In this document: in pieces, positions 21,521 through 37,255 of the stretch
Numbering within the stretch: position 1 is the first letter of the stretch
Layout of the letters: every line of letters begins with the position of its first letter
DNA from: Thalassavirus gary
Lineage: Duplodnaviria; Heunggongvirae; Uroviricota; Caudoviricetes; Demerecviridae
IMG/VR virus record: IMGVR_UViG_2974784677_000001
Direction: 5' to 3' (one strand)
DNA: 64,000 bases
The notes under the pieces: generated by a model
What the model saw: the letters and a program-made list of their open reading frames with translations, nothing else
Told to the model about the DNA's origin: nothing
Databases searched by the model: none
Position numbers and translations under genes: made by a program

Positions 21521-21558
21521 CTTTATAGATGTTAACGTCATGTTATATAAAAATCTTC

Positions 21559-21588
21559 TTGCTATTTCGAGAGAATTTTTATATAATA
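21559..21588 (+). promoter_or_regulatory. early promoter TTGCTA-18-TATAAT
   Basis: member of the conserved promoter family, followed by leader CCATAAATTGAAAAGGAGATT. Confidence 0.6.
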
Positions 21589-21617
21589 GTTCCATAAATT
21601 GAAAAGGAGATTGTATT

Positions 21618-29299: not shown

Positions 29300-29396
29300 G
29301 GAAGAGTAAGCCAACAGATTCTGGGTACTGGCAACTGTCTTGAAAACAGTCGATCCTTGAAAGGGTGTGTGGGTTCGAATCCCACTTCTTCCGCCA
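29300..29396 (+). tRNA. tRNA-Ser (TGA), long variable arm, unusually long D region
   Basis: acceptor GGAAGAG/TTCTTCC, anticodon arm ACTGT-CTTGAAA-ACAGT, variable arm CGATCCTTGAAAGGGTGTG, T-loop GGTTCGAATCC, CCA; 97 nt. Confidence 0.5.
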
Positions 29397-36479: not shown

Positions 36480-36556
36480 GGGTTGTATGCTGAAGTGGAC
36501 GAAGCGCGGGATTGCAAACCCCGTCTTACTCGGTTCGAGTCCGAGACTTCCCTCCA
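36480..36556 (+). tRNA. tRNA-Cys (GCA)
   Basis: anticodon arm CGGGA-TTGCAAA-CCCCG, T-arm CTCGG-TTCGAGT-CCGAG, CCA; acceptor stem has two U-U mismatches. Confidence 0.45.
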
Positions 36557-36574
36557 AATTAATTAAAAATGGAA

Positions 36575-36603
36575 TTGCTAAATAACTAAAAATTCCGTAT
36601 AAT
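36575..36603 (+). promoter_or_regulatory. early promoter TTGCTA-17-TATAAT with conserved leader, driving a non-coding transcript and tRNA-His
   Basis: TTGCTAAATAACTAAAAATTCCGTATAATAGTTACATAAAGTTGAGAGAG. Confidence 0.6.
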
Positions 36604-36604
36604 A

Positions 36605-36868
36605 GTTACATAAAGTTGAGAGAGTCAAGTAAGCGCGGTAACTGGCGTAATGTAGTCACTACTTCGTGGATTGTAATTCTTTCTCGACTTGTCACATTAA
36701 AACATTCTTGAATTGTCTGGTGGAGTAAGAGCCGTCAGAAAAAGACAGAAAGCCGTGCTACTCACACTAGACTCTTACAGTGTTGGGTACGAAAGCCTGA
36801 ATAAGAATACGGTCAGGTCATGCCGTGGGGATAGCTACCTCTAGAGCTAACTGTGTAGAGTGTTTTAA
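36605..36868 (+). ncRNA. candidate structured ncRNA (about 260 nt) between promoter and tRNA-His
   Basis: no ORF; long-range complementarity TGTCACATTAAAACATTC (about 36686) with GAGTGTTTTAATGTGACG (about 36856) closes a roughly 170-nt domain; internal hairpins. Confidence 0.4.
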
Positions 36869-36869
36869 T

Positions 36870-36946
36870 GTGACGTTGGCTGAAGTGGGAATGGCTCTGG
36901 GTTGTGATTCCAGAATATGCGGGTTCGATCCCCGTACGTCACCCCA
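36870..36946 (+). tRNA. tRNA-His (GTG)
   Basis: acceptor GTGACGT/ACGTCAC, anticodon arm CTGGG-TTGTGAT-TCCAG, T-loop GGTTCGATCCC, CCA. Confidence 0.65.
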
Positions 36947-37160: not shown

Positions 37161-37170
37161 ACAAATTAAT

Positions 37171-37255
37171 GCTCCGTGTGCCGACATCGCTCTTCTAAAG
37201 CGATACGTAAAACGTTGGGTGGACGTGAGAGGTTCGACTCCTCCACGGAGTGCCA
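37171..37255 (+). tRNA. tRNA-Arg (TCT) with extended variable region
   Basis: acceptor GCTCCGT/ACGGAGT, anticodon arm TCGCT-CTTCTAA-AGCGA, T-loop GGTTCGACTCC, CCA; 85 nt. Confidence 0.5.

Follow-up and report, generated by a model that had tools for sequence, protein, structure and literature searches.

What lies between tRNA-Cys and tRNA-His in the tRNA cluster of Thalassavirus gary: a spacer, a leader of the tRNA, or an RNA in its own right? The question is raised by positions 36557-36869 of a 64,000-nt stretch of this T5-like phage (Demerecviridae; IMG/VR record IMGVR_UViG_2974784677_000001), the whole of which we call the window. The queried positions are 100% identical to the Vibrio phages Gary and Luma (Thalassavirus), are flanked by tRNA-Cys (36480-36556) and tRNA-His (36870-36946), and belong to a tRNA cluster of the Gary/Luma type with at least 21 tRNA genes. 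The element they contain stands without annotation in about 40 phage records. A sequence-only reading of the window had taken it for a dedicated non-coding RNA (ncRNA) or a structured tRNA leader, not a spacer, and this is supported by the lack of a conserved open reading frame (ORF), a covarying fold and a closing helix found throughout the family. We conclude that the ncRNA is real and under selection. "ncRNA" and "leader" are probably not true alternatives: the helix looks like a processing element of tRNA-His and the core like a separately selected RNA carried at its apex. Our overall explanation, to which we give a probability of roughly 0.55, is a promoter-driven unit in which a double-stranded stalk, here named P1, would be processed to yield tRNA-His and a selected core RNA that would act in trans.

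A closing helix that enters tRNA-His

The two arms of P1, each 18 nt long, lie 148 nt apart (Table 1). They form 18 standard pairs, two of which are G-U, or 19 when U36690-G36875 is counted; in shuffles of 36557-36946 (n = 200) the longest stem averaged 11 bp and reached 16 bp at most. An 18-nt long-range complement closing a domain of about 170 nt had been noticed in the letters of the window alone, and pairing of 36691-36708 with 36857-36874 bears it out with two corrections. The strings that had been named are actually at 36690-36707 and 36858-36875, 4 and 2 nt away from where they had been placed. The 3' strand, described as abutting the 5' end of the tRNA, does lie at the tRNA but overlaps it, since the first five nucleotides of tRNA-His, GUGAC (36870-36874), are part of P1. 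Among the 21 tRNAs of the window a leader helix of this kind is found only on tRNA-His, the others having 6-11 bp.

A covariance model made from Vibrio phages only found its best match in T5 at the junction of RNA III and tRNA-His (25.7 bits, E ~2e-7). RNA III is a RefSeq feature of T5 (rnaIII, T5s01, NC_005859 30284-30389) labelled 'stable RNA with unknown functions'; read as transcribed, the T5 order is RNA 1, RNA I, RNA III and then tRNA-His, with RNA III abutting the 5' side of the tRNA. The match aligns P1 only, as GCCACAAUUGAAAAUUCG : CGAGUUUUCAAUUGUGGC with 80 nt enclosed, and here too the 3' arm ends in the first 5 nt of tRNA-His. The model also finds P1 at the tRNA-His junction of Proteus phage Stubb (18.4 bits), where the helix has 17 bp and a 3-nt loop, of the Epseptimavirus UTK0009 (18.2 bits), with 12 bp, one mismatch and 7 further bp around about 110 nt, and of Providencia phage PSTCR5 (13.5 bits), with 12 bp and a 14-nt loop. 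Homologous helices overlapping tRNA-His at +1 to +3 or more are thus present in T5, Epseptimavirus, Priunavirus and Novosibvirus, and across lineages the enclosed lengths are 3, 14, 80, ~110 and ~145 nt.

When P1 was aligned across eight lineages from seven genera, anchored on tRNA +1 and free of indels, it was 95% paired and 10 of the 18 pairs showed compensatory changes. The pairs to tRNA +1, +2 and +3 were present in all eight lineages. For the outermost pairs, to +4 and +5, covariation with the tRNA was downgraded, as homology between PG07 and VspSw1 begins no earlier than the CAC, the partner of +1 to +3. The complement is therefore not a peculiarity of the window that relatives lack, the outcome that would have counted against the sequence-only reading: it is conserved, with compensatory changes. 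Since the helix is family-wide and within the window is confined to tRNA-His, P1 is an old, tRNA-His-specific feature of the family that predates the core.

What P1 carries at its apex varies, from nothing to T5 RNA III, the Epseptimavirus core or the Vibrio core. The covariance model detected no relation among the cores of the Vibrio, T5 and Epseptimavirus lineages; BLAST found no similarity between the Vibrio core and the core of T5 RNA III, and the model took the 80-nt T5 core as an insertion. The window element and RNA III are nevertheless equivalent in position, each being the direct 5' neighbour of tRNA-His in the tRNA cluster of a Demerecviridae phage. In T5, as in the window, there is a closing helix (18-20 bp) whose 3' strand is formed by the tRNA-His leader and continues with GUGGC of the tRNA, and the T5 arms can be aligned with the window arms, with compensatory changes between them. 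The two differ in the core, which has 80 nt in T5 and 148 nt in the window, so that only P1 is alignable. They also differ upstream, where RNA III follows RNA I and RNA 1 with no promoter of its own directly before it, whereas in the window a promoter dedicated to the element and a hairpin at its 5' end come first. Lying 5' of tRNA-His, and closed by a helix of at least 12 bp that reaches the tRNA, the window element belongs with the tRNA-His leader-helix unit; by these comparisons it is the counterpart of RNA III at the level of the P1 unit and not a member of an RNA III sequence family.

Beside these comparisons we noted that the core of about 110 nt in Salmonella phage UTK0009 (fetched locus L334, 290-431), a third and unrelated one, is preceded by ...GAGAGCCGCCA, as is found at the 3' end of T5 RNA I.

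A covarying core fold with two tertiary contacts

The element is a non-coding RNA of about 185 bases, whose fold combines six helices with a pseudoknot and a kissing contact between two loops. P1 closes the fold, P2 is a hairpin, the 4-bp helix P3 leads to a second junction, and P4, P5 and P6 are hairpins. The junction nucleotides UGAA, ACAGAAAGCC and CUGUGU are invariant.

An alignment made with MAFFT and folded with RNAalifold brought out P1, P5 and P6; P2, P4 and both tertiary pairings were missed because the variable middle was misaligned. This alignment was replaced by one in which the three lineages were segmented by hand and padded with N to keep columns; it holds 10 distinct sequences from three genera of Vibrio Demerecviridae. 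In it the 62 pairs of nine helices are 97.5% paired, compared with 84.1% in shuffles, a percentage inflated by the fitting of the hand alignment to the structure. Changes on both sides were seen at 30 pairs (15.3 in shuffles and 1-4 in slid controls), and the covariation score was 0.444 against 0.187. Three further lines are free of hand-alignment bias, namely the tRNA-anchored alignment of P1 given above, an indel-free comparison within one genus and shuffles of the kissing loops. Within Thalassavirus, where there are no indels, all seven variable pairs stay paired and the other four variable columns are unpaired; the pseudoknot changes there from CCGUG/UACGG to CCAUG/CAUGG. The kissing loops read GUAAGAG/CUCUUAC, CUAGC/GCUAG and UGAGAC/GUCUCA in the three genera, giving 7, 5 and 6 contiguous Watson-Crick pairs, with shuffle frequencies per lineage of 0.0024, 0.067 and 0.0067.

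The window copy contains six G-U pairs, and its covariance-model score, 167.9 bits on the + strand, falls to 22 bits on the - strand. Together, the G-U pairs and the strand bias indicate that selection acts on the + strand RNA. Fold and covariance analysis in homologous phages, which had been proposed as a check when the locus was first noticed, therefore yielded P1, the core helices and the tertiary pairings with compensatory changes. Covariation across three genera argues that the core is selected in its own right. Finally, six nucleotides of the P6 loop are self-complementary, reading UAGCUA in Thalassavirus and Pogseptimavirus and UGGCCG in Jesfedecavirus (with G-U at the ends); this palindrome, kept through a single independent change, could mediate dimerisation.

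A family promoter without a reading frame

The promoter of the element belongs to a promoter-plus-leader family with 13 same-strand copies in the window, the copy at 36575 included, where 0 are expected by chance. Together with the TTGCTA/TATAAT layout, this confirms the family promoter and conserved leader that had been called at 36575-36630. We take A36610 to be +1, by analogy with the layout of the T5 N25 promoter. Most other copies, among them all five with an exact pattern match, lead to a GGAG-type ribosome site and a start codon about 25 nt past +1 (ATG, in one case apparently TTG). The 36575 copy departs from the family after ATAAAGTTGAGAG and has neither a ribosome site nor a start codon. 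The conserved, promoter-proximal leader of the family, AAGUUGAGAGAG, is here one strand of a 5'-terminal hairpin, P0, which stands flush with P1 with zero linker nucleotides. The base of P0 in JSF12 is the identical 12 bp, with a G-U changed to A-U, and PG07 and VspSw1 have unrelated hairpins at the position of P0.

Over the 260 nt from the inferred +1 to tRNA-His, all ORFs have 43 amino acids or fewer and start with TTG or GTG. ORF conservation was sought in the homologous regions of JSF12 and PG07 and not found, both having stops in every frame, and no conserved ORF with a start codon and ribosome site exists among these copies. The earlier impression that no credible ORF precedes tRNA-His thus holds, and translation of a small protein, which would have spoken against it, finds no counterpart in any conserved small ORF.

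One separate match to the covariance model lies on the - strand of the window: the AT-rich hairpin at 21542-21594, which owes its 25.6 bits to P1 alone and overlaps the promoter-family copy at 21559.

Table 1. Positions of the element's parts and flanking features in the window
Feature	Position	Strand	Details
Sigma-70-type T5-family early promoter	36575-36603	+	-35 TTGCTA 36575-36580, 17-nt spacer, -10 TATAAT 36598-36603
P0, 5'-terminal hairpin	36613-36690	+	Leader AAGUUGAGAGAG (36613-36624) : CUUUCUCGACUU (36679-36690); dG -25.3 kcal/mol, z -3.5
P1 5' arm	36691-36708	+	GUCACAUUAAAACAUUCU; pairs with 36857-36874
Predicted excised stable RNA, 170 nt	36699-36868	+	By analogy with the annotated ends of T5 RNA III
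J1/2	36709-36715	+	UGAA invariant across three genera
P2 hairpin	36716-36739	+	UCUGG 36716-36720 : UCAGA 36735-36739; compensatory changes at 5 of 6 pairs
Kissing 5' strand	36725-36731	+	GUAAGAG in P2 loop; compensatory changes at 5 of 7 pairs (helix 3)
P3 5' strand	36745-36748	+	ACAG; pairs with CUGU 36851-36854
Pseudoknot 5' strand	36753-36757	+	CCGUG, P3/P4 joining strand; pairs with UACGG 36808-36812 in P5 loop
P4 hairpin	36760-36788	+	ACUCACACU : AGUG-U-UGGGU; compensatory changes at 7 of 9 pairs
Kissing 3' strand	36772-36778	+	CUCUUAC in P4 loop; loop-loop Monte Carlo
P5 hairpin	36795-36818	+	GCCUGA : UCAGGU; loop carries pseudoknot 3' strand
P6 hairpin	36822-36847	+	GCC..GGGG : CCUC..G-GC; loop with self-complementary UAGCUA 36832-36837
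P3 3' strand	36851-36854	+	CUGU; pairs with ACAG 36745-36748
P1 3' arm	36857-36874	+	AGAGUGUUUUAAU followed by GUGAC; tRNA-His leader -13 to -1 plus tRNA +1 to +5
tRNA-His (GUG)	36870-36946	+	U at -1, C73, encoded CCA

The -1 nucleotide and a proposed processing route

In bacteria an encoded G-1 that pairs with C73 shifts the RNase P cut to -1, and tRNA-His thereby receives its extra 5' nucleotide. The tRNA-His genes that bear the helix have C73 and an encoded CCA, yet U rather than G at -1. The window tRNA-His thus resembles the canonical bacterial one in keeping C73 and in requiring an extra 5' nucleotide; it differs in that the canonical G-1 pairs with C73 whereas U-1 of the window precursor pairs with an A of the upstream P1 arm. 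Since U at -1 cannot pair with C73, the standard G-1:C73 route through RNase P is unavailable.

The annotation of T5 suggests another route. T5 tRNA-His is annotated one nucleotide longer at its 5' side than ARAGORN predicts, starting from U-1, while the other T5 tRNAs found by ARAGORN in the scanned stretch match their annotation exactly (21 of 21). As tRNA-His alone differs, the annotators meant U-1 as part of the tRNA. By annotation RNA III begins at the partner of -4 and ends at -2, which leaves 2-nt 3' overhangs on both cut ends; the implied cut is 12 bp below the top of P1. Overhangs of this kind are the signature of RNase III, and the geometry of the T5 ends suggests RNase III-type processing. 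An RNase III substrate calls for about two turns of uninterrupted double-stranded RNA over the cleavage site, and P1, with 16-20 bp in each of five lineages, reaches beyond the -2/-1 bond in both directions. Like the RNase III stalks of rRNA operons and T7 early mRNAs, P1, a predicted substrate, is a duplex of about two turns made from sequences that flank a structured RNA. For T4, Pragai and Apirion reportedly linked a precursor of tRNA-Gln and species 1 to RNase III in 1981. We place a double-strand-specific cut at -2/-1 somewhat below even odds as the processing step. Such a cut within double-stranded RNA would explain why the helix has to run on into the tRNA, and also its restriction to tRNA-His.

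On this model, the locus would be a single transcription unit composed of a strong T5-type early promoter, P0, a core of about 150 nt closed by the 18-19-bp P1, and tRNA-His. P1 would act as a double-stranded processing stalk, and a staggered cut with RNase III geometry would release two products. The first would be a tRNA-His with one extra 5' nucleotide, U-1, needed for its recognition; by the T5 analogy it would start at U36869. The second would be the core RNA, which with both ends within a helix should be stable, and which, once released, would act in trans. We favour a stable trans-acting RNA over a mere clamp because its ends would be held in a helix, because the element has a dedicated strong early promoter in two genera and because bare hairpins suffice in the Proteus and Providencia phages. 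A broader proposal, for which we would claim clearly less, is that Demerecviridae in general provide tRNA-His with its 5' nucleotide through an unrecognised route, an RNase III-like cut (leaving U-1 with a 5' phosphate) that would take the place of the universal bacterial rule of G-1:C73 and RNase P, and that the apex of the helix has been colonised repeatedly by independent RNAs. The Vibrio RNA would then be a new compact class with a kissing loop and a pseudoknot, whose palindromic loop could dimerise.

A link between the encoded -1 nucleotide and the element in particular was considered and rejected, because U at -1 is common also where a phage tRNA-His gene is without the element. The combination of T at -1 with C73 was seen in T5 (L331), KVP40 (L153), pv27 (L154) and VPT02 (L144) and in the fetched loci L334, L152 and L332.

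Alternative explanations

The alternative that survives best, although we consider it unlikely, is that RNase P acts alone. The stable ncRNA would then owe its 3' end to the RNase P cut at G+1, P1 would only shield that end from exonucleases, the overlap with +1 to +5 would be a transient co-transcriptional intermediate, and U-1 in T5 would be an annotation convention. RNase P is established as the enzyme that processes all bacterial pre-tRNAs, U is its preferred nucleotide at -1 (and U-1 is found also in KVP40, pv27 and VPT02, which lack P1), and both predicted ends of the RNA fall within helices. This explanation gives no reason, however, for a helix that extends 3-5 bp into the tRNA in eight of eight lineages, for the restriction of the helix to tRNA-His, or for the T5 annotation, in which RNA III ends at -2 and the tRNA starts at -1 while 21 other tRNAs match ARAGORN. 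Moreover, a fully paired leader is a poor substrate of RNase P.

Less probable again is a leader that acts purely in cis, holding the 5' strand of the acceptor stem in P1 so as to gate or time the maturation of tRNA-His, with the core as a clamp or riboswitch-like sensor. By nearest-neighbour energies the extended P1 is more stable than the acceptor stem in four lineages, by 1.3-9.8 kcal/mol (tRNA tertiary structure lies outside this model), and the element is fused to tRNA-His in every case. As in a riboswitch, P1 competes with the acceptor stem, yet the competing pairs are 13 bp from the core junction and so probably beyond the reach of ligand control. As a clamp, a bare hairpin is enough in the Proteus and Providencia phages, so that a core of 150 nt and its two tertiary contacts would be superfluous. 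In VPT02 the same tRNA matures with no such element, and a strong promoter belonging to the element itself, found in two genera, is likewise hard to reconcile with a purely cis-acting role.

The core could also be a new self-cleaving, otherwise catalytic or self-assembling RNA that uses the apex of the tRNA-His leader helix by chance, which we regard as improbable. Its compact fold with two junctions, kissing loop, pseudoknot and invariant junction nucleotides would suit such an RNA, as would the retention of the P6 palindrome through the change from UAGCUA to UGGCCG, and ROOL and GOLLD, phage RNAs encoded near tRNA islands, form homo-oligomers (PMC12286853). But the core matches no ribozyme or ornate-RNA family even at E<=10, and the palindrome evidence amounts to one independent change. 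A DNA-level feature, a remnant resembling a miniature inverted-repeat transposable element (MITE) with terminal inverted repeats, or a small-protein gene is largely refuted: the arms do look like inverted repeats and presence does vary among close relatives (27 Thalassavirus with the element, 16 with another spacer), but the dispersed copies with target-site duplications that mark a MITE or insertion sequence (IS) were not found (the window has a single copy, and no other was seen among loci fetched by sampling scans of metagenome, viral and bacterial collections), the position relative to tRNA-His is always fixed, the G-U pairs and the compensatory changes in internal helices point to selection on the + strand RNA, and there is no conserved ORF.

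Several observations weigh against the processing explanation itself. The predicted preference for P1 over the acceptor stem, 1-10 kcal/mol, could equally mean that P1 delays folding of the tRNA. VPT02 has the tRNA-His allele of the window, with U-1, and no P1, its leader being complementary to CCA and the trailer instead. The RNase III reading leans on T5 coordinates as annotated, which may not be experimental, and the 2-nt stagger could be a coincidence. Homology between the window element and T5 RNA III is supported for P1 only. Within the fold, the near invariance of P3 means that covariation gives this helix no support either way, and to these points the inflated pairing percentage of the fitted three-genus alignment must be added.

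The locus in related Vibrio phages

The 245-nt part of the element outside the promoter is at least 96% identical in 27 Thalassavirus records. Diverged copies, with about 77-85% identity over part of the query only, lie just 5' of tRNA-His in two more genera, Jesfedecavirus (JSF10, JSF12, phi 3) and Pogseptimavirus (PG07, VspSw_1 and relatives). Upstream of the element there are tRNA-Cys and the promoter in Thalassavirus, an ORF and the same type of promoter in JSF12, and an ORF with no promoter in PG07. In VPT02, Ceto and KIT04, which lack the element, the gap from tRNA-Cys to tRNA-His is 6-13 nt. A further 16 Thalassavirus records have an unrelated, stem-closed spacer of 86 nt and a different tRNA-His allele, which encodes G-1; the G-1-encoding tRNA-His alleles of Ceto and KIT04 have no leader helix.

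Some observations on these relatives stand apart. The 86-nt spacer is identical in Vibrio phage AG74 (L147 723-808) and 15 other Thalassavirus, is closed by CCAATAAGCCC/GGGCTTATTGG, abuts tRNA-His and has z -5.1. The VPT02 leader GACUUAUUGG (L144 688-800) complements, by eye, CCA and the trailer CCAAUAAGUC, giving an acceptor extension of about 18 bp with a U-1/C73 mismatch. In Vibrio phage PG07 (L006 930-1135) a gap of 206 nt with no annotated ORF lies just 3' of tRNA-His and contains the T-arm-like GGGTTCCACC. In JSF12 (L004 121-194) Rfam gives a tRNA at 46 bits that the record does not annotate; the fetched stretch shows no tRNA features, not even for tRNA-His.

Searches and comparison with known RNAs

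Rfam 15 returned nothing on the domain in the window, JSF12 and PG07 copies at either the gathering or the E<=10 threshold, the families at stake being riboswitches, ribozymes, ROOL, GOLLD, 6S, Y RNA-like RNAs, tmRNA and RNase P RNA. On the AG74 and T5 copies it found tRNAs only, and T5 RNA III is not in Rfam. Compared by eye, the core gave no convincing match with the conserved regions of hammerhead, twister, hairpin, glmS, the lysine and cobalamin riboswitches, T-box, Y RNA, 6S, CsrB-like RNAs and RNase P. With the covariance model a single copy was found in the window, and no further one among about 300 loci obtained by pattern scans of metagenomes, IMG/VR and bacterial genomes, scans that sample these collections and do not exhaust them. 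The IMG/VR scans returned only isolate genomes and chance matches, and two scans of bacterial genomes gave no real match. With a loose pattern, all 120 among the metagenome matches listed were judged by the covariance model to be chance matches, which does not establish absence from metagenomes. Outside Demerecviridae, Aeromonas phage LAh_6 has a similar leader sequence and no helix. A literature search found nothing on the RNA of the element, on ncRNAs of Thalassavirus or on U-1 in phage tRNA-His.

That tRNA clusters of phages contain stable RNAs has long been known. T5 RNA2H, RNAX, RNAI and RNAIV and T4 RNAC and RNAD are, like the window RNA, non-coding and co-transcribed with tRNAs from early promoters; what RNAC and RNAD do is still unexplained (PMC3014915). 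In sequence the window RNA showed no relation to the other stable RNAs of the T5 and T4 tRNA clusters. We know of no published covariation-supported fold for any of the latter. Two T5 loci have the order promoter, stable RNA, tRNA, both annotated as of unknown function: P13b, RNA2H (172 nt) and tRNA-Ala at NC_005859 31808-32075, and P16-17, RNAX (719 nt) and tRNA-Arg at NC_005859 40773-41628. ROOL and GOLLD resemble the window RNA in being encoded by phages or prophages, often beside tRNA islands, and in their complex, pseudoknotted folds, and some GOLLDs carry covalently linked tRNAs (PMC12286853); unlike it they are three to five times larger, and neither gives an Rfam match to the window.

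Two other tRNA genes of the window are unusual. The gene at 37170-37252 is tRNA-like, with the acceptor GCUCCGU/ACGGAGU, a G discriminator, CCA, the anticodon loop CUUCUAA (UCU), no D arm and a long variable arm; ARAGORN missed it and Rfam gave a weak tRNA-Sec match (29.5 bits). In its place a canonical tRNA-Arg(UCU) is found in Hades, AG74, VPT02 and Ceto. At 29300-29393 there is a tRNA (40 bits in Rfam) that ARAGORN did not call and that by eye is a tRNA-Ser(UGA) with a long variable arm; its neighbours tRNA-Gly (87 nt) and tRNA-Ile(tat) (93 nt) are unusually long.

Meaning for the phage tRNA cluster

The stable RNAs of phage tRNA clusters, such as T5 RNA I and RNA III and T4 RNAC and RNAD, have gone unexplained for some forty years. 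New here are the Vibrio core with its fold, the first for such an RNA that is three-dimensional in style and backed by covariation, and a leader helix that is kept on tRNA-His throughout the family and overlaps the tRNA while the RNA it carries is replaceable. Also new is a processing hypothesis that ties this helix to the -1 nucleotide of tRNA-His and would explain why tRNA-His is the tRNA concerned. If the structure alone is right, the element would be a new RNA family worthy of Rfam, and a gap that now stands empty in about 40 phage genomes could be annotated. Should the processing model hold as well, it would be a new solution to tRNA-His identity and would bear on how phage tRNAs function in hosts whose own tRNAs are attacked.

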